Source: a virus
Lineage: Duplodnaviria; Heunggongvirae; Uroviricota; Caudoviricetes
IMG/VR virus record: IMGVR_UViG_2636415906_000001
Strand: one strand, 5' to 3'
Length of the DNA stretch: 18,744 bases
Shown here: one piece after another, positions 1-18,744 of the stretch
Position numbering within the stretch: the stretch's first letter is position 1
Layout of the letters: each line of letters starts with the position of its first letter
The notes under the pieces: generated by a model
What the model saw: only the letters and a program-made list of their open reading frames with translations
Told to the model about the DNA's origin: nothing
The model's database searches: none
Program-made: the position numbers and the translations under genes

Positions 1-603
1 CTATTTCTTCTCTGTAATTTTTACACTGTTTTCCAACTGCTTGATGCTGACCTGCGGGGTCGGCAACTCCTCAGGCATGGTTCCGCCAAGTTCCTGAATG
101 GTTTGCCTCACCTTGCTACCCACGTCAAAGTGTGTGGTATTAGCTTGCTGTGCTGCCTCAACCAATTGTTTGTTATGTTCTTTCAACTCATTTCTCAGAA
201 ACAGACGCTTTTCGTCTTCACGAAGTTGCTTAAATGCTTCATCGTCAGCAAGCTCCTGCCGTCGGGTCTGGATAGCAAAATAAGTCTGCCCTGCCGCAAT
301 GACCGGTTTCGCGGGGTCGCCGTTTTGTACTACCAGGTAACAGGCATAGCGGGAGAGTACGATGTCTTTTAATGCTCTTTTGGCATTTGAGCCAATTTTG
401 ACCATATCGAGGATCTCCTCGAAATGGTCATCAATTGTGTGACCACTGTTCTCACAGGCCTCTTTGGCGCGCGTTAATACAGGTATAAAGTGACGATACT
501 CTGAATAACCCAGTAGTTTCCCAAGTTGTCTTGCTGACCATTGTTCTGCTCCGTTTGCATTAATCAGTTTTATCTCTTCAAAAGGTTGATGATGTTCGTT
601 CAT
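1..603 (-). CDS. dinD: DNA-damage-inducible protein D (DinD/RhuM family); start taken at the internal ATG (MNEHHQPF...), ORF track extends to 615
   Basis: Complete ORF with stop at 1-3. The N-terminus MNEHHQPFEEIKLINANGAEQWSARQLGKLLGYSEYRHF matches my recollection of E. coli DinD. A perfect LexA box sits about 45 bp upstream. Length (200 aa) is shorter than I recall for K-12 DinD, so an internal deletion is possible. Confidence 0.75.
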   Translation of the reverse strand: MNEHHQPFEEIKLINANGAEQWSARQLGKLLGYSEYRHFIPVLTRAKEACENSGHTIDDHFEEILDMVKIGSNAKRALKDIVLSRYACYLVVQNGDPAKPVIAAGQTYFAIQTRRQELADDEAFKQLREDEKRLFLRNELKEHNKQLVEAAQQANTTHFDVGSKVRQTIQELGGTMPEELPTPQVSIKQLENSVKITEKK

Positions 604-648
604 TGCCCACTCCATGTGATATCGATTGCAAAGAAAGTAAATCTGTAA

Positions 649-664
649 CTGTATTTATATACAG
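649..664 (-). promoter_or_regulatory. LexA (SOS) box CTGT-N8-ACAG upstream of dinD
   Basis: Plus strand reads aaCTGTATTTATATACAGtt; the reverse complement is AACTGTATATAAATACAGTT, a canonical palindromic SOS box, positioned 46-61 bp upstream of the dinD ATG. Confidence 0.8.
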
Positions 665-759
665 TTGTGAGTATCTCACGTTCTCAGTGTGCTGGGCAAA
701 AAAACATCGCAAAATCTGGAGCAGGCACGCAAAACAGAATTGAAGTTGCGGGGAAGAAA

Positions 760-788
760 AATGCCGCTCTGTTTGAGTGGGCGGCATT
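760..788 (-). terminator. Putative intrinsic terminator for leftward transcripts (8-bp stem AATGCCGC/GCGGCATT, then a U-rich tract on the minus strand)
   Basis: Inverted repeat 760-767 and 781-788 with a 13-nt loop; on the minus strand the stem is followed by TTTCTTCCC. It lies between the island-side genes and the dinD promoter. Confidence 0.35.
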
Positions 789-1311
789 TGTGAAGGCTGA
801 AAAGTAAGAATTAGTGTTACGAGTTACTCAATATTGAATCTGTTTGTAGAGTGTTGGCTTCAATGCCGCATTGTAGCTGGTTTCTTTCTAATGCGGTTTT
901 TGATTATGTACACCCTTATGTACACAGTTTTTTCTGGTGCTATCCGCGCAATTGAAGGTGTGGGCATAATTTTGCCTCTATTGTGATAATCACAATTCTT
1001 CTTGTGTTGTGCTCATCATCCAGTTCATCGAGTTTCTACCAAGAGCGTTTTACGCGCTGGCCGAAGCTATTTTGGTTGCTTTGGTCTGAAGCCATTACCT
1101 ACATCCCTCATGATTGAGGTGTGTAACCATGTTCAGGCTCGTTGTCCTGTGCGCGCGTATTGCTCGTGAAATTGCTGTACACAATTAAGCTCTGCGATAT
1201 TAGGTTTTATAAGGTTCTCGCATCCTTGTGAGGCGGCAGAATCAGTAAATACCTGATATTCCCGCCAACGAAAAAATGCGTTGGCTGGCAGAGTGCAAAT
1301 TTGCACGATGA

Positions 1312-1371
1312 CCTAACCCATTGATTCTTTCGAAAACCCCCATTGGGGGAAATCCTAACCCATTGATTCTT
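1312..1371. repeat. Two perfect 18-bp direct repeats (cctaacccattgattctt) flanking a C5-ATT-G5 hairpin
   Basis: Copies at 1312-1329 and 1354-1371 are identical; cccccattggggg at 1337-1349 lies between them. A tgcaaatttgca palindrome is just upstream at 1294-1305. Non-coding context. Confidence 0.8.
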
Positions 1372-1464
1372 CCACAATCCTCAATTTGAGGAAGCCGAAT
1401 AACACCATTTTTATAGCTCCGATCCCTTCAAAGTGAGGGGTAATTTGCCAAAACAGAGAGAGCA

Positions 1465-1752
1465 TTACTGTCTCTGGCAATCTTTATCGCGATAACGCCT
1501 GAAGTACCCTCTCGCTTCCTCATCCATACCAAGAGCCGAATGAGTTCGCTTAACTGCCTGTCTTAAATCTCCGAATCTGTCTGTAGTTGCTGGTGGGCGT
1601 GCCGCCTTACGGATACATTCAGAGCGCCTGTTTGCTGCATGTTCACGTTCTTTATCGCCATTTGCCAGCATCATGACTTCTGCCCATCGTGCGGCAGCTC
1701 TCCGGTATAGCCCTTTTGACTCCAGCTCTTCAGCTTTCCTGTCCCTTATCAT
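1465..1752 (-). CDS. PerC-family transcriptional activator-like protein (95 aa)
   Basis: The motif AEELESKGLYRRAAARWAEVM resembles the conserved PerC-family core (AExLExxGL(W/Y)RRAAxRW) common in P4-like and prophage islands. Basic small protein. Family assignment is from memory. Confidence 0.55.
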   Translation of the reverse strand: MIRDRKAEELESKGLYRRAAARWAEVMMLANGDKEREHAANRRSECIRKAARPPATTDRFGDLRQAVKRTHSALGMDEEARGYFRRYRDKDCQRQ

Positions 1753-2468: not shown

Positions 2469-3431
2469 TTATTCAATATCAAATAAATGCCTTGGGAAAC
2501 CGTTATTATCAGGTAATCCCATGGCTGTCAGGTTACATCCTGGTAAGTTAGGCTTGTTATCTACAAGGTTGGCAACTTTTTTTATCCAGTCAGATCCCGG
2601 TCCAATTTTTTTCACTAAAAACCATAACACAGCGATCATTCCGTACATTCTTTCGTACGCATCATCATTCATATTTAATTGCTCAAAGTACGGCTCATTT
2701 GGCAAAGGCATTAATCTTGGTTCGTTGACCTTGTTCCAGATGCGTGAATGGTGAGCGCACCGATTCCTTAGCACATTCATTGCGCTAAGCCAGTTTTGGA
2801 AGATAGCTCCATTGCCTGCCGCTATCCCTAGCCTAGATAGTATCCTGTTGCGATAGCTGTCTTTTAGCATCGCATAATACTTTGACATTAAGCCGAAGTC
2901 CCATACTTCAATAACCACCCAGAAAGGAAGACCTTCGTACTTGTTTTCATGCCATTTGATAAAGTCTTCGCGACTTTTAGCAATCTCGGCATTATGTTTA
3001 TTTATCCATTCTTCTCTGGCGCTTGGGCGACCATGGGAACGTGGTCTAAAGTGTTTTGGATTTATTAGCGAGTCATCAAGATATGCTAAAGGAGATATCT
3101 TACCAAGCTCATGAGCAATAACTGACCGAACATAAACCTCAATGCGTTCTAACGCATTCATCATCTGCAAACGCAGATTTTTATCGAATAAATAGAGGTC
3201 ATATACTGCGCGAAAATTAGTACCTGGACGAACCTGATCGAGTCTGGTTCTAATATTGTCTGTTGTTATATGGGGGATTCGGCAGGGGTACCAAAAGCCT
3301 GATAATCGGTAGTAGCCTACTTGTGAGATTTTCTTGATAGCATGTTCGCGATCTGGCACATCCATACCCCGAGACAGCAATAAATCGACAAGTTCATCAT
3401 ATTCTTTATGAACCTTAACCGGAACAGCCAT
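2469..3431 (-). CDS. Abortive-infection protein, Abi_2 family (AbiD/AbiF/AbiD1-like), 320 aa
   Basis: Abi_2 hallmarks as I recall them: N-terminal EYDELVDLLLSRGM...GYYRLSGFW and the central motif LRNRCAHHSRIWN. The gene is visibly AT-rich compared with the core operon. Confidence 0.85.
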   Translation of the reverse strand: MAVPVKVHKEYDELVDLLLSRGMDVPDREHAIKKISQVGYYRLSGFWYPCRIPHITTDNIRTRLDQVRPGTNFRAVYDLYLFDKNLRLQMMNALERIEVYVRSVIAHELGKISPLAYLDDSLINPKHFRPRSHGRPSAREEWINKHNAEIAKSREDFIKWHENKYEGLPFWVVIEVWDFGLMSKYYAMLKDSYRNRILSRLGIAAGNGAIFQNWLSAMNVLRNRCAHHSRIWNKVNEPRLMPLPNEPYFEQLNMNDDAYERMYGMIAVLWFLVKKIGPGSDWIKKVANLVDNKPNLPGCNLTAMGLPDNNGFPRHLFDIE

Positions 3432-4681: not shown

Positions 4682-6799
4682 CTAGTCATTATCTGGATCA
4701 TTAGATAGCCAAGTAATGATGCCCAGTCTGGCGATGGTCCGTTTTTCCTGTTCAGGAAGAGAGTTAAAAAAACTCTTCCATTGAGGGGAGCGCCTGATAC
4801 GTGAATCAACAATGTGCCCAGGCGCTTTTCCGTGTAGATTTTTTACTGCGCTCTGGAAGGCTGGCGAGGCAATTAATTTATCCGCAGCATCAGCCGCCCC
4901 TGCTCCACCAGCTAATCGAGCTTTACTCGCCAATCTTGCTCCAATATCAGCCCCAGCAATGGCTCCAAGCGATCCAAAATGAGCGCCTACCATCGTGCCT
5001 ATTTTTTGAATGTGTTTTGCTGCTAGTTCGTATGGAGCTGTTACCCGATTAAATCTGTTTACAAACTCATTCAGCTTACCAGTAGATATTTCATGCGCTT
5101 TAGCATTTTTTATTGCTCTGGCAACTTTGTATACATCATATAGTCCGCTCATTGTTTCTTTTGGCAAATGTTCAGCCAAAGTCTTTAGCTGTCCACTGTG
5201 TTGCAAGTTTTGCCACCAATCTGCAAAGCCAGATGGATTAAAGTCGGCCCCACGCTTCCCAGAGGAAAGCATATCTCTTAATGCTGTTCCTACTAGCTCC
5301 CTTCGCAATGTTCTTGATGGAGTATTTTGCATAATCTCACGAAACCCTCTCGCATCACCTTTTGCCATAGATTGAAGAGAATTCGTTACTTTATACGCTA
5401 TATCCCCATTAAGTGTTTTCCCGCGAAGATTTACCATTTGCCTTTCTAAGTTTTTTCTCATAGCTACAAGGCGTTGTGCGACTTCGAAATCTCGCAAGTA
5501 TCCAGTATTGGATAAGACAGATTTTTGGTCTTCAGCTAAAGCTCCATATAGTCTTGATAGCGCTTCTTTATCAGCATCTTTGTATGGCCCCTGCTTTTTA
5601 TTTAGGGCATCACCAACTAAACGCCTTTGCCTGTTTAAATTTGCATACGTTAGGATGCTATCTGGGCCGGGGTTTATTGCTGTAAAAACTCGCTTTTCTA
5701 TTGGGTCAAGATTATCCCACCCTCCTAAATCATCAGCGATTTTTTCCAGCATAGTGCTTGTGTTATTTGCTTCGACTTTTGTTCTTGGTGATAGAGCGGA
5801 ATCAACACGTTTATATAACTGATCACTACGGTTTTTTAGTGCTTCCATTCTACTATTTATCTGATAAATATATTTTTCGCTCATAGCTAACGCATCTGGC
5901 GCACCAGCAACATCATCGATTATCTTGCCAGCACTAGAGGCTAATTCGCTTATTGCTTTATCTTCTTGAGCTTTTAACGCTGATCCTGTCCGTGACTTTA
6001 GGGCTTGCTCTACAGCTTGGTATTGCTCATTTCCTGATAAATGAGAAGGAAGAACTGAATCAACATGAAGCCTATTTGCAGCCTCAACAATTTCTTTCTG
6101 AGGTTTTAGATCTAGCCCTTCAAGCGAAGAGGCAAGATTTGGGTTGCCTTGTGCAGATAACTTACGAATTTTCTCTTCGGCAGGAGTAATCCCCTCAATA
6201 TCTGGAATCGAAGAAACATTCTTCTTGGTTAATTTCCCAGCTATTTTATTAATTGCAGGGCCAGCAAGTTCGGCTACAGGGCCAGCCACAGCGCCAATAG
6301 CAGCGCCGGAAGCAACATCGCTATTTGTTCCATTGGCTACAATAGCCCCTTCTCCAGCACCAAGCCCTGCGGCGGCAGCCAGTCTTGCCGCCCCTTTGGG
6401 AACCTGAGAAATAATCCCACCACCACTAACAAATGGCGCTGCTTGTCCAACGAACTCACCAACATCTTGTGCGGTTGATGGTTTTGCCGCTAACTTCTGC
6501 TGTAGAGACTGAATTGCGGCTTGCTCTTCTGGTGTCATATCCTGAAACAGGCCAACACCTTTACCAACATCCATCAATCCACTGAGAACGCCATACATAA
6601 AACGGTCGAAACCGTTAGCATTATTAACAACATTTTCCTGTCTGGAATTTTCCTCTGGTGAAACCAAAGGTGATTGCTGCTGTTCTGGTTGGGCATCAAG
6701 CACAAAACCATCAGGAAGCTGTGAACTATCAGGAAACTGTGAGTTATCAGGTTGTTCATCGAGCACAAAACCTTCCGGTAAGATTACATTTGCTGCCAT
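4682..6799 (-). CDS. Large hypothetical protein (705 aa): acidic repeat N-terminus, Gly/Ala-rich segment, coiled-coil-like middle; no recognisable enzymatic motif
   Basis: Long uninterrupted ORF with ATG start at 6797-6799, overlapping the upstream 451-aa gene by 16 nt (translational coupling). N-terminus LPEGFVLDEQPDNSQFPDSSQLPDGFVLDAQPEQQQ; AAAAGLGAGEGAIVANG...GAVAGPVAELAGP tract. No signal peptide or Walker motif seen. Confidence 0.8.
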   Translation of the reverse strand: MAANVILPEGFVLDEQPDNSQFPDSSQLPDGFVLDAQPEQQQSPLVSPEENSRQENVVNNANGFDRFMYGVLSGLMDVGKGVGLFQDMTPEEQAAIQSLQQKLAAKPSTAQDVGEFVGQAAPFVSGGGIISQVPKGAARLAAAAGLGAGEGAIVANGTNSDVASGAAIGAVAGPVAELAGPAINKIAGKLTKKNVSSIPDIEGITPAEEKIRKLSAQGNPNLASSLEGLDLKPQKEIVEAANRLHVDSVLPSHLSGNEQYQAVEQALKSRTGSALKAQEDKAISELASSAGKIIDDVAGAPDALAMSEKYIYQINSRMEALKNRSDQLYKRVDSALSPRTKVEANNTSTMLEKIADDLGGWDNLDPIEKRVFTAINPGPDSILTYANLNRQRRLVGDALNKKQGPYKDADKEALSRLYGALAEDQKSVLSNTGYLRDFEVAQRLVAMRKNLERQMVNLRGKTLNGDIAYKVTNSLQSMAKGDARGFREIMQNTPSRTLRRELVGTALRDMLSSGKRGADFNPSGFADWWQNLQHSGQLKTLAEHLPKETMSGLYDVYKVARAIKNAKAHEISTGKLNEFVNRFNRVTAPYELAAKHIQKIGTMVGAHFGSLGAIAGADIGARLASKARLAGGAGAADAADKLIASPAFQSAVKNLHGKAPGHIVDSRIRRSPQWKSFFNSLPEQEKRTIARLGIITWLSNDPDND

Positions 6800-8127
6800 T
6801 TTCCGTTCCTGTAAATGATTTTCTGACCAGTTTTAGGGTTGGTTGCCGTTGCGCCTTCTGATATTCCTCCGGTTGCCGCTTTTGCCTGTCCAGTGCCAGC
6901 CTGTGATGTAGGCTGCCCGGAAACATCGTCAAATAGCTTCGCTTTCCTTCTTTCAAGGCTTTTTCTTAGCCCCTGAGGAATAGTTTCTCCATATGTATCG
7001 AGATACTCGTCAACCTGCTGGTTAAACTGCTGCCCCATAGCATTGGCGTTGATTTTTGCGGCGTTAACAATGTTATCCTTTGCCTCCTGCGACAGGCCGT
7101 TTCCAGCATTAAGCTGGTCTATGTATCCTTTGATTTGTCCCCATATGCCATCAGACCGCATTACCTGAACCTGTTCGCCTTCACGAACGACTGACTGCGG
7201 GTCAAGAGATTTCATGTAGTTGAAGATAATCCCAAGTTGGGCAGCGCCAGTATTTACCTTGCTAAGGGCTTGCAGAGAGTTTGCCGCCGCTCTGACAGAG
7301 TTATAATTTTTGCCAAAATTGGTAATGTCAGAATTTAATCCCTTAATTAAGTCTGCTGACGGCTTACCTTTTTGCCCCAGCTCCATTAGCTTCAATCCCA
7401 TCTCATCTGAGTGAATTTGTGCTCGCTGAGCCCTGTCTAGTTGAGCGTTCTGGATATTTGCCCATCCTCTCGCGTTCTCCATGTCAGCCTGACGCATACT
7501 TTCATCCAGTCGCCCTTGCTCAAGTCGACGACCTTCCATTTGATCTTTGATATCGAAATACTTCTCATGACCGAGAGAAAACAGCGCCAGATTACCTGCG
7601 AAATGCTGGAAGCCCTGCGGGTCATTAACCTGCATTTCAGCAATAGTTTCTGGAGGGATACCTAAACGACGCATCTCCTGCTCATTATCCATCATGAACC
7701 TGCCAAATGCGCCCTGACCAAGCGATGAGGCTACCTGTGCTTTGAGCGCCAGATTGCCATAATCATCCCTTTGAGCATCATCGACATAACTCATCCCTTT
7801 ACGGACTTCCTCAAACTCTTCTGGGAATGCTGTAATAAGATTACGCATCTGCTCCCTGTCACCGGACGCATAAGCATCTGCATAACCTTTCTGGAATGCC
7901 GCTTTACGCTCCTGCTGTTGCTGCTGCTTATAAATATCAGCAACTCCAGCCAGACCACGAAGACCTGTCAGAGCAACGTTATTTGCACCTGATCGAGCCA
8001 GTTCATTGTTTTCGCGGATCAGACCAAGCGTTGCGTTAATGTCGCTTGCCTTTGGCGCATTCTCATTTTGCGTACCGATGCCAGCCAGAAAACCACCAGA
8101 ATTAATACCCTGTTGCCACGTAGCCAT
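6784..8127 (-). CDS. Hypothetical coiled-coil, Gln-rich protein (about 447 aa from ATG 8127; ORF track extends to GTG 8139)
   Basis: Long ORF; the ATG at 8125-8127 overlaps the stop of the upstream 57-aa ORF. QQQQQ run and low-complexity A/Q/N/G-rich sequence. No enzymatic motif recognised. Confidence 0.8.
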   Translation of the reverse strand: MATWQQGINSGGFLAGIGTQNENAPKASDINATLGLIRENNELARSGANNVALTGLRGLAGVADIYKQQQQQERKAAFQKGYADAYASGDREQMRNLITAFPEEFEEVRKGMSYVDDAQRDDYGNLALKAQVASSLGQGAFGRFMMDNEQEMRRLGIPPETIAEMQVNDPQGFQHFAGNLALFSLGHEKYFDIKDQMEGRRLEQGRLDESMRQADMENARGWANIQNAQLDRAQRAQIHSDEMGLKLMELGQKGKPSADLIKGLNSDITNFGKNYNSVRAAANSLQALSKVNTGAAQLGIIFNYMKSLDPQSVVREGEQVQVMRSDGIWGQIKGYIDQLNAGNGLSQEAKDNIVNAAKINANAMGQQFNQQVDEYLDTYGETIPQGLRKSLERRKAKLFDDVSGQPTSQAGTGQAKAATGGISEGATATNPKTGQKIIYRNGKWQQM

Positions 8128-8131
8128 AAAT

Positions 8132-16828: not shown

Positions 16829-17479
16829 TTAGTCGAGATCGTGGACAGCTAATAAAGCCCGTGAGATTTTTTCTAGGAATGTGGCTTTTGCTATTCCTTT
16901 ATGGGATATCCCTTCATCCTTGATTAAGGTTTCTATGTCACGGTATATAGCTGTGCGATTAGGTTTCCCATTTTGGATGTAGGAAGATGAGCCTGATTTT
17001 TTTATCAGCAGATGTACTATCAACCCCATCATTTTCATTGTCCCGTTTTCCTCATCCTGCTTTCTATGCTGCCCACGTCCGCTGCGGTTGGTTTCTTTGA
17101 TGTAGTTTACTAACTGGAGTCCTCCAAGGTTTCGGGCTTTTTCTTCCCAGCCCTTGGTGCCACGCAAATCATCAATCGCTTCTGATATTTTCTGAACAAT
17201 TATTTCTGGTGTATTTGTGTCAATAAATGGGTAAGAAGCTAAGAAAATATCAAGGGCATGGCAAGGCTCATCTTTACTAGTTTTTTCACCTCTGTACACC
17301 TTGATAGCTCTGGCAAGATGAGTTCTGACAAAATCGACATATTCGAAATTTTCCTCAGGCACATCGCTAATGCGCATAGATGGGTTTAGGCCAGCCAAGG
17401 CCACAGCCATTTCATGAGGGGTAATCGATACAGATGAACAAAGCCGTTCGATTGGCGATTTTCTCAAGATGTTGTTCAC
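16829..17479 (-). CDS. Hypothetical protein (216 aa) translationally coupled to the integrase; GTG start
   Basis: GTG at 17479 overlaps the int stop (GTGA) with GGAGG 5-6 nt upstream. AT-rich relative to int. No family recognised. Confidence 0.65.
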   Translation of the reverse strand: MNNILRKSPIERLCSSVSITPHEMAVALAGLNPSMRISDVPEENFEYVDFVRTHLARAIKVYRGEKTSKDEPCHALDIFLASYPFIDTNTPEIIVQKISEAIDDLRGTKGWEEKARNLGGLQLVNYIKETNRSGRGQHRKQDEENGTMKMMGLIVHLLIKKSGSSSYIQNGKPNRTAIYRDIETLIKDEGISHKGIAKATFLEKISRALLAVHDLD

Positions 17480-18744
17480 ATTTGCCTCCGGGCTTTATCG
17501 AATGGCGTTACGTTGTAGTCTTTCCCGCTTTCCAGTGCCACCAGCAGATCTGCCCACTGTGCCAGTGCTGCTTTACGCTCATCAAAATACTGATGACGGT
17601 TATAAATCCCCTCTACGCCCTTAATGCGATGATTGAGGCATCGTTCCGCCACGACAGGATCAACACCCAATGCTGCTAAATGAGTACGTGCGGTGCGTCG
17701 GAAGTCGTGAATCGTGAAATTAGGCACATCCGGCATTTCGGCGCGAACCTTAGCCAGTGCTACGGGTAAAGTGCTTTCCTGAATATGTGGGATCATTCTG
17801 TTTTGCATCTTCCTGGCCGGAAGCACCCATGCGCTATTACATGAAAAGGTGTGTAGCTCTCTCAACCATTCAACGGCTGGGGAAGGTAGAGGTATATCAA
17901 TAGGGTCTCCGTTTTTGCTGCGTTCTTCCGGCAAATGCCATACCGCACCATCTAAATCAAACTCTTCCCATCGTGCGGCGCATAACTCCATCTTACGAAC
18001 GCATAGTGCCAGCAATAGCTTAAATGTCAGTTCGTTCTGGCGGCTGAATCCTTTTGCGGTGCGCATAGCCTCGAATAGCCTGATAAGCTCATCGCGAGTT
18101 AGCCAACGGTCGCGGGAAACCTCTTTACCACCAGCATCAGATACTTCAAACGCTGAACAAGGGTTTATCTCCAGAGCGTGGCGTTTTATCCCATAGTCAA
18201 AGATACGGCGTGTCCAGCGTAATACATCTGTTGCTATCGTTGGTGCTCCTCGGTCAACGATACCTTTTAACATGTCGTCAATGTGACGTGGCTTAACGTC
18301 CTCTACCTTCATATGCCCAATGCAGGGGTTAATATCCTTATCAATTCTCCGGCGAAGGATATCGGGATGTTTCCATCTCGGAAGTATCTGGCGCTCGAAG
18401 TATTCGGAGGCCAGATCTGAAACACGCATGGCGTTTTTCTCAGCCTCCATTTTTGCCAGTGCTTCAGCTTTTCGTTCCTGTTTCTCTGCTGCTACGTCAT
18501 AGCCAAGAGCAACTCTGGCTGACAGCTCTTTTGCTGTTTCTCTGGCTTTTGATAGTGACAGTTCGGAGTAAGAGCCTATAACCATAGCCCGCTGCTTTCC
18601 TGCGAGCTTATAGCGGAATCGCCAGAACGGGACTGTGTAGTTTTTGGGGTAGCAAATATAAAGGCCGTTGCCGTCTGCCTTGCCATCAAATCTGTCTCCC
18701 GCCTTTATCCATGCGCGGATCTGCATATCTGTGAGTTTTGGCAT
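17476..18744 (-). CDS. int: Tyrosine site-specific integrase, P4 family (422 aa); start codon is the last three bases of the window
   Basis: N-terminal arm-binding-like region (GLYICYP...WRFRYKLAGKQRAMVIGSY), catalytic-domain motifs HDFRRTARTHL and LNHRIKGVEGIYNRHQY (R/H-x-x-R and the Tyr nucleophile). Confidence 0.9.
   Translation of the reverse strand: MPKLTDMQIRAWIKAGDRFDGKADGNGLYICYPKNYTVPFWRFRYKLAGKQRAMVIGSYSELSLSKARETAKELSARVALGYDVAAEKQERKAEALAKMEAEKNAMRVSDLASEYFERQILPRWKHPDILRRRIDKDINPCIGHMKVEDVKPRHIDDMLKGIVDRGAPTIATDVLRWTRRIFDYGIKRHALEINPCSAFEVSDAGGKEVSRDRWLTRDELIRLFEAMRTAKGFSRQNELTFKLLLALCVRKMELCAARWEEFDLDGAVWHLPEERSKNGDPIDIPLPSPAVEWLRELHTFSCNSAWVLPARKMQNRMIPHIQESTLPVALAKVRAEMPDVPNFTIHDFRRTARTHLAALGVDPVVAERCLNHRIKGVEGIYNRHQYFDERKAALAQWADLLVALESGKDYNVTPFDKARRQM

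Follow-up and report, generated by a model that had tools for sequence, protein, structure and literature searches.

Gene-free DNA beside dinD is the int-distal att junction of an island at yicC, probably an EcCIMP1-like satellite, and carries a module of putative IHF- and Roi-binding sites

EcCIMP1 is a phage-inducible chromosomal island (PICI) of Escherichia coli that is excised and transduced with the P22-like phage Kapi1 as helper (Pick et al. 2025, PMC11773190). For satellites of this type, how infection by the helper is signaled and how packaging takes place are both unknown (PMC11773190). Here, we analyze an 18,744-nt stretch of E. coli DNA (IMG/VR record IMGVR_UViG_2636415906_000001), referred to as the window, and in particular the 849 bp between the start codon of dinD (615; gene 1-615, minus strand) and the stop codon of a PerC-family gene (1465; gene 1465-1752, minus strand; Pfam PerC, E = 3e-33). 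The remainder of the window, to 18744, is a mobile island, and the window ends exactly at the start codon of the tyrosine integrase gene of this island (int, 17476-18744, minus strand). The 849-bp interval is a composite, in which a chromosomal spacer is followed by an attachment (att) site and then, from 843 rightwards, by modular non-coding DNA of the satellite. The junction and the att site are solid and belong to an ordinary member of a well-known kind. Judged from sequence comparison, and with the reading of the terminal module given below included, the interval is likely to be the int-distal junction of an EcCIMP1-like PICI of about 18 kb inserted at the 3' end of yicC, beside dinD.

The junction is located by alignment with island-free genomes, as the initial annotation had proposed. 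When 560-1800 is compared by megablast with 5,426 complete E. coli genomes, 4,781 match, and only 141 cover at least 80% of the query. In most of the sampled island-free genomes, the match ends at or just before 842, and yicC is annotated directly under the match. The empty sites of K-12 (L001) and ACN002 (L004) consist of dinD, a 220-bp spacer, and then the 3' end of yicC, and ACN002 is 99.3% identical to window 560-842. As K-12, ACN002, and the island-free genomes carry the same spacer, 616-835 is conserved backbone. The initial annotation had put the island boundary at 700-1464 and had allowed that this stretch might prove to be chromosomal backbone throughout. The boundary does lie inside it, at 842/843; it is not at 700, since 700-835 (about 135 bp, with the first hairpin) is backbone, and only this part fits the backbone alternative. 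The left boundary of the island is thereby fixed, and dinD and its SOS operator are untouched. A LexA-box-like motif (CTGT-N8-ACAG) is found within the backbone at 649-664, upstream of dinD.

The hairpin at 760-788, noticed earlier as a possible terminator for leftward transcripts, is found on the minus strand. Its position in the empty site, directly after the yicC stop codon, indicates that it is the yicC terminator, now parted from yicC by the island. In accordance, the island-free genomes show the features of an intrinsic terminator at this position, a stable GC-rich hairpin and a U-run directly past the stop codon.

A copy of the att core is present at each end of the island, as is seen when the empty sites of L001 and L004 are set against window 824-842 and the int-side copies of L002 and L014 (sequences in Table 1). 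The block common to the copies is TTAYTCRATRTT followed by GAATCTG. The complete element is carried by strain SW070919 (L002, 98.9% identical), in which about 18 kb separate dinD from yicC and int adjoins yicC. The earlier suggestions that the interval holds a distal att remnant and that a partner copy lies next to int, beyond the window, are both borne out: the remnant is the int-distal core copy, and the partner in L002 starts 189 bp past the int start codon. In addition, the yicC-side core in L002 is preceded by an island-borne hairpin with T-runs, so that yicC is given a new stop-codon region and terminator.

The DNA adjacent to the dinD-side core can be attributed to the P' arm of the att site. 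It is kept in islands with the same integrase type and is absent from islands at other att sites (L010 and L011). The tandem repeat described by the initial annotation is found here as two exact copies of TTATGTACAC, at 904-913 and 916-925. Two matches alone are not unusual in the window, as 44 of 200 shuffled sequences reach that number; the pair is considered non-random because the copies are adjacent and have partner copies at the other end of the island. The P arm of L002, upstream of int, carries GTGTACATAA (inverted), AATGTACATG, TTATGTACAC, and CTATGTACAC, of which AATGTACATG is a fourth copy with two mismatches. Within 41 kb of L002, five matches to the 9-mer TATGTACAC are seen when one mismatch is allowed, and none lies outside the two island arms. 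On the P' side, the distance between repeats and core is about 62-90 bp, and on the P side it is about 110-160 bp.

To these repeats, a second island at the same site provides a natural variant. In the YPE3 island (L005 and L014), all six homologous repeat positions are occupied by GGGTACAC or TGTGTACAC, with TGGGTACAC as the counterpart of TATGTACAC for the YPE3-type Int. The two integrases are identical at 390 of 417 aligned residues, and 17 of the 27 differences fall in residues 1-90, with 13 in residues 15-40. The TTATGTACAC pair is therefore predicted to be arm-type integrase sites, identified through natural covariation; the joint change of the repeats and the arm-binding domain is the strongest evidence short of a binding assay. 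The att site thus has the properties of the lambda/P4 type, namely repeats that are distinct from the core and clustered on both arms, and an Int with an N-terminal arm-binding domain. This domain would bridge the arm repeats to the core for integration and excision, as in lambda/P4-type intasomes, and on the yicC side the island would supply the substitute gene end and its terminator. Between the core and the arm-type sites, the second hairpin of the initial annotation (866-901, with a T-run on the plus strand) is present and weaker than the first, with a 9-bp stem, a 15-nt loop, and a folding energy of -12.8 kcal/mol (z = -2.9). Its sequence is largely kept in the sister island L005, and thus in both island types; it may be terminator-like, or a site for bending or an accessory factor.

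The genes of the island are those of an EcCIMP1-like PICI. They include int, an AlpA-type regulator, a primase, and PerC, and lack capsid, terminase, and lysis genes, in an element of about 18-20 kb, as judged from Pfam matches, the RefSeq annotation of L002, and comparison with EcCIMP1. The Pfam matches are to Int (Arm-DNA-bind_3, E = 9e-20, Phage_int_M, and Phage_integrase, for the N-terminal arm-binding, central, and catalytic domains), an AntA-family protein, Ash, a Zn-ribbon/Toprim/DUF5906 primase, a P22 injectosome protein (Inj_translocase), and PerC. Helper-related ejection-protein genes are present as well: in addition to the Inj_translocase domain, 6279-7545 (1.27 kb) is 89% identical in DNA to Kapi1. 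Over 6279-8128, the P22-type ejection-protein genes of the satellite are 85-89% identical in DNA to the Kapi1 genes, which implies recent exchange with P22-like helpers. Helper-dependent excision and transfer are demonstrated for EcCIMP1 only.

The non-coding DNA of the satellite ends, next to the PerC-family gene, in a terminal module (Table 1). The direct-repeat and hairpin unit that the initial annotation placed at 1312-1371 is real, and larger than described, as it consists of two tandem 42-nt units. On the minus strand, the 18-nt box of each unit reads AATCAATGGGTTA, a perfect match to the consensus of integration host factor (IHF), WATCAANNNNTTR; the whole window contains only three such matches, and two of them are these boxes. 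Of the 1,010 records that match 926-1464, those sampled at even spacing divide about equally between roi genes and non-coding island contexts; at least 80% of 926-1464 is covered in only 16 genomes. Non-coding DNA with the core of the module is also found close to the int-distal end of other islands, whose integrases, att sites, and cargo differ. One is EcCIMP1-like and lies at yagU/tRNA-Thr (L011), and one is of the O157 type and has three PerC genes as well as a Q-family gene (L016). Two others bear capsid and terS genes, one near clpS (L017, three units) and one near yejO (L044, one unit), and the core also occurs in seven IMG/VR contigs. Box 1 is nearly invariant among the islands. The palindromes vary, and only L011 has a clean double compensatory change, from CCTCAATTTGAGG to CCTGCAATGCAGG; the variants in L015, L009, and IMG/VR each have a mismatch or a pair that is G-U only.

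The second unit overlaps a 63-bp copy of an internal segment of the lambdoid roi gene. The roi genes of over 100 phage records and of hundreds of prophages, Kapi1_032, HK620, and CUS-3 among them, show 85-97% identity to the segment, the minus strand of which reads KNGVIRLPQIEDCGRINGLG, matching Roi residues 37-57. The similarity ends abruptly, and no homology to roi trails off into the flanks; no Roi homologue is encoded in the island. Between Kapi1 and the island, only the roi segment and the ejection-protein genes are common. Both spacer variants of the units, TCTTTCGRAAA and TCTTCCACAAT, are found in roi alleles and in satellite units. Moreover, two roi alleles (L007 2448-3170 and L013 13120-13842) are near-identical except at residues ~47-63, and this differing patch coincides with the IHF box and spacer common to the satellite units. 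The two spacer variants in both settings, together with the single differing patch of Roi, suggest repeated exchange between roi and the satellite module.

The Roi protein of phage HK022 is reported (Clerget & Boccard, J Bacteriol 1996) to bind a site within its own gene that is closely linked to an IHF site. The segment of the 1351-1413 type may be that mapped site. The module could then be a DNA platform to which host IHF and a Roi-type protein of the helper are predicted to bind. Its two 42-nt units are copies of a roi-internal segment, each with an IHF consensus and a palindrome, and through them the satellite would detect an early protein of the helper or sequester it. Past perC, the minus strand has hairpins with U-runs at 1453-1476 and 1337-1349. 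These would limit read-through from perC toward dinD. Where the island is an excised circle, int follows downstream on this strand, and read-through toward int would be limited instead. Taken on its own, a protein-binding platform for IHF and a helper Roi-type protein is held tentatively, somewhat short of an even chance. The conserved module provides a useful lead, as non-coding satellite DNA with copies of helper-gene segments and adjacent host-factor sites. No description of the module is found in the literature searched, and the papers on PICI cos sites and on capsid-forming PICIs (cf-PICIs) describe no matching element.

Alternatively, the DNA past the P' arm may be non-functional debris, in which roi and terS pieces are scars of lambdoid recombination and the hairpins are ordinary perC terminators. 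The roi segment and a terS fragment described below both derive from coding sequence and lie in sense orientation. Islands commonly differ by indels, swapped cassettes, and the number of units, the module is missing from EcCIMP1 and L043, and the U-run hairpins past perC are where such terminators would be. However, several PICI lineages that differ in integrase and cargo keep the module as non-coding DNA, box 1 shows little or no change from island to island, most altered palindromes remain palindromic, and the fragments end abruptly, with no trailing homology to roi beside them. We regard debris as unlikely.

Between the P' arm and the terminal module, the non-coding DNA contains a swapped cassette. 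In the window, 1193-1243 corresponds to nt 97-147 of a 555-nt prophage terS and is 96.1% identical to it in nine genomes and 87% identical in two. By our own motif reading, the fragment would encode the recognition-helix part of a helix-turn-helix (HTH). Compared with its closest allele (L006), it has two changes, both synonymous. The terS cassette is found in an unannotated, island-type context in 17 genomes, and a matching terS in 11 genomes; the fragment finds no counterpart in the phage collection, and the genes that match it in E. coli genomes are limited to 11 prophage terS. In most islands, this position is instead occupied by an unrelated cassette of ~80 bp (the L003 type); in the 252 E. 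coli genomes with this cassette, it never falls within annotated genes, and a search of the phage collection gives no match to it. Since this common cassette matches no phage gene, a general reading of the cassette as a "terS mimic" is rejected.

A packaging function can nevertheless be considered for the lineage studied here, in which the cassette and the module would form a packaging-initiation region: the 51-bp fragment would mimic a pac site inside the helper terS, and the IHF sites and palindromes would help terminase assembly. The pac sites of several phages lie within terS. IHF assists at lambda cosB (PMC9026076). The island lacks a terS of its own, the fragment is sharp-edged with only synonymous changes relative to the closest live allele, and in the capsid/terS-bearing islands the module is located a few hundred base pairs downstream of the packaging genes, near the island end. 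On the other hand, the terS cassette is confined to 17 genomes, whereas the cassette in 252 genomes matches no phage gene. By our reading of the annotation, the head genes of the prophage with the donor terS (a DUF1073 protein and a minor head protein) do not look like the P22-type module of Kapi1, and the ejection-protein genes of the island point instead to P22-like helpers. The 51-bp stretch is not more conserved between alleles than the rest of terS, and EcCIMP1 is transduced without the module. As to the cos-type or packaging site suggested by the initial annotation, patterns of lambda cosN, P2 cos, and P22 pac are absent from 616-1464 within the mismatch limits used. A packaging role is thus only a possibility, raised by the 51-bp terS fragment of this island lineage, and we regard the packaging-initiation region as unlikely. 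The fuller proposal, that a terminal cis-acting module of roi-internal site copies detects or sequesters a helper protein in several satellite lineages and that one lineage has added the 51-bp terS piece as a packaging signal or decoy, is doubtful.

The segment that follows the P' arm raises a further alternative, a regulatory RNA. It contains a promoter-like site on the plus strand at 961-990 (TGGGCA-18-TG-GATAAT, with an extended -10 element), from which a transcript could run antisense to helper terS mRNA, roi mRNA, and perC; the RNA could also be a structured 3' untranslated region (UTR) of perC. Both phage-gene fragments are antisense to such a plus-strand transcript, several hairpins are stable, and the palindrome variant CCTTAATTTGAGG keeps its pairing on the plus strand only through G-U. 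Against it, the covariance models of Rfam 15 give no match at E <= 1 on either strand of 500-2200; the promoter scan finds one site against a mean of 3.8 in shuffled sequence; the 139 bp that carry the promoter are confined to this lineage; and the module occurs in both orientations relative to neighboring genes. We regard a regulatory RNA as very unlikely. Separately, the promoter-like site overlaps a perfect 15-bp palindrome, TTGTGATAATCACAA (961-995), the center of which resembles a Fur box.

Several observations weigh against the reading of the interval as an att junction that ends in a functional module. The window stops at the int start codon, so the int-side core and the P arm are read from the near-identical genome of L002 and not from this strain. 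The yicC-side core copy is intact, and strains differ in the length of the dinD-side copy, of which at least four forms exist: L043 (~2890) has it in full, the window, the sister island L005, and L003 (~20000) have it without CT, and in L002 (~20260) and L008/L009 (~2400) two different deletions have made it 9-11 bp shorter. With such variation, some islands may be unable to excise and be locked in place. The point of strand exchange could lie within the 12-bp block or within GAATCTG. The IHF consensus, allowing one mismatch, is absent from 820-1100 and from the P arm of L002. As for the module, the number of units varies from one to three between islands, and the second box is degenerate in L003, L008, and L010. 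EcCIMP1, which is mobilized by Kapi1, has no module, indicating that the module is not essential for transfer of that family. Finally, the roi segment can be equated with the HK022 Roi site only tentatively.

Table 1 Features of the interval between dinD and the PerC-family gene, with the att core sequences compared
Feature	Position	Strand	Basis or sequence
dinD-yicC intergenic spacer, chromosomal backbone	616-835 (616..823 up to the core)		Empty-site comparison
yicC Rho-independent terminator	760..788	-	-12.4 kcal/mol, z = -4.9, followed by UUUUUCUU; in K-12 positioned just after the yicC stop codon
int-distal att core copy, remnant of the last yicC codons and stop	824..842		TTACTCAATATT + GAATCTG, without the CT of attB
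att core, empty site			GAGTTACTCAATATTCTGAATCTGCTCGCG
att core, window, dinD side	824-842, then island		GAGTTACTCAATATT--GAATCTGTTTGTAG
att core, L002, yicC (int) side			GGCTTATTCGATATTCTGAATCTGCTCGCG
P' arm of the att site	843..934		Near-identical in L002, L003, L008, L009, L043
Inverted repeat CCGCATT...AATGCGG with T-run (UUUUU)	866..901	+	Fold; between core and arm-type sites
Two predicted arm-type integrase-binding repeats, TTATGTACAC x2	904..925	+	Partner copies upstream of int; covariation
139-bp lineage-specific segment	935..1073		Absent from L003, L008, L009, L043
Non-coding block linked to this att/P' arm type	1074..1186		Conserved in L003, L008, L009, L043
Swapped cassette	1187..1245	-	1193-1243 is a 51-bp prophage terS fragment, sense on the minus strand
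Terminal non-coding module, common to several PICI lineages	1246..1464		Genome and IMG/VR matches
CCAACG/CGTTGG hairpin	1261-1288
Palindrome	1293-1306		GTGCAAATTTGCAC
Unit 1	1312-1351		IHF box CCTAACCCATTGATTCTT (1312-1329), palindrome CCCCCATTGGGGG (1337-1349)
Unit 2	1354-1393		IHF box CCTAACCCATTGATTCTT (1354-1371), palindrome CCTCAATTTGAGG (1379-1391)
63-bp copy of an internal lambdoid roi (antirepressor/KilAC) segment	1351..1413	-	Contains IHF box 2 and palindrome CCTCAATTTGAGG
Weaker hairpin	1424-1440
Weaker hairpin, perC-proximal	1453-1476

No protein-coding gene is recognized in the interval. As the initial annotation stated, no open reading frame (ORF) of at least 60 residues lies wholly inside it, the largest having 57, 56, and 55 residues, and the RefSeq annotation of L002 has no gene in the same interval. 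The minus-strand ORF of 57 residues is rejected as a gene, as it is not conserved. A plus-strand ORF (MFRLVVL..., start at 1129) has a good ribosome-binding site and is rejected as well, since its end varies between islands and its start is missing in L010. An ORF of 69 residues (578-787, minus strand) straddles the dinD start, in the backbone; none of the RefSeq relatives examined has it annotated. In L043, the block at 1074-1186 is followed by a different gene instead of the terminal module.

The box sequence was also searched in one genome per species, with 25 matches against ~17 expected by chance by our own estimate, mostly in unrelated contexts; numbers so close to chance give no evidence of a wider family of the 18-nt box. 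In four of these settings, from Acidobacteriota and Betaproteobacteria (L020, L026, L037, and L038), the exact 18-mer CCTAACCCATTGATTCTT is found directly beside the 3' ends of tRNA genes, where it is partly one arm of a terminator-like hairpin. In the island near clpS (L017), a direct repeat of ~80 bp (2195-2280 and 2790-2870) flanks a stretch of ~600 bp with the three IHF-box units.

Further observations concern the neighborhood of the interval. In L003 (NZ_CP160104, 19742-20020), dinD is missing and unrelated AT-rich DNA, which may be the remnant of a second element, abuts the P' arm through a shortened core, TTACTCGATTGAATCTG. On the other side of perC, an Abi-family gene (2469-3431) occupies an accessory slot that holds an ImmA/IrrE pair in related islands; the slot looks like a variable hotspot for defense genes. 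Between perC and the ORF at 2012 (1789-1909), GTTGGTTCA occurs six times without mismatch, as a tandem of three and as three inverted copies with 21-bp spacing, a number reached by none of 200 shuffled sequences (none is expected by chance). The homologous stretch of EcCIMP1 is located just downstream of the primase gene, so the copies may be replication-origin iterons or an operator array.

Compared with described systems, the island as a whole is closest to EcCIMP1. The two share the set and order of int, AlpA-type HTH, AntA, DUF4222, Ash, primase, P22-like ejection-protein genes, and PerC, both are without capsid and terminase genes, and their sizes are similar. In contrast, EcCIMP1 has its own integrase and an att site at tRNA-Thr instead of the 3' end of yicC, its primase is of the TOPRIM/DUF927 type instead of DUF5906, and downstream of perC it has other genes and lacks the terminal module and both phage-gene fragments.

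The junction resembles lambda/P4-type att sites in that the core is duplicated at both ends and overlaps a host gene at its 3' end, both arms carry short repeats that do not resemble the core, Int has an N-terminal arm-binding domain, and the target gene receives a replacement end and a terminator from the island. It differs in that the target is a protein gene, yicC, rather than a tRNA gene, the arms have no recognizable IHF consensus, and the length of the int-distal core depends on the strain.

Satellites that use packaging sites of their helpers (P4 with P2 cos, cos-type Staphylococcus aureus pathogenicity islands (SaPIs), and EcCICFT073 with cos1/cosB and Rpp) likewise have no terminase of their own and carry short helper-derived DNA in a non-coding region near one end. 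Here, however, there is no cos, and the candidate is a terS coding fragment that is restricted to one small lineage.

RIP and RIB elements are a subclass of the bacterial interspersed mosaic elements (BIMEs) of E. coli, in which an IHF site is flanked by repetitive extragenic palindromic (REP) sequences at the 3' ends of transcription units. The satellite units are likewise short and repeated, follow the end of a gene, and hold both an IHF consensus and palindromes. Unlike them, the satellite units have no similarity to REP and are found in PICIs and inside roi genes rather than dispersed over the chromosome.

The Roi/IHF site within the roi gene of HK022 and other lambdoid phages is the nearest relative of the module itself, with 63 bp at 85-97% identity and a perfect IHF consensus beside a 13-bp palindrome. 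The satellite segment differs from it in being non-coding, tandemly duplicated, and paired with other palindromes.

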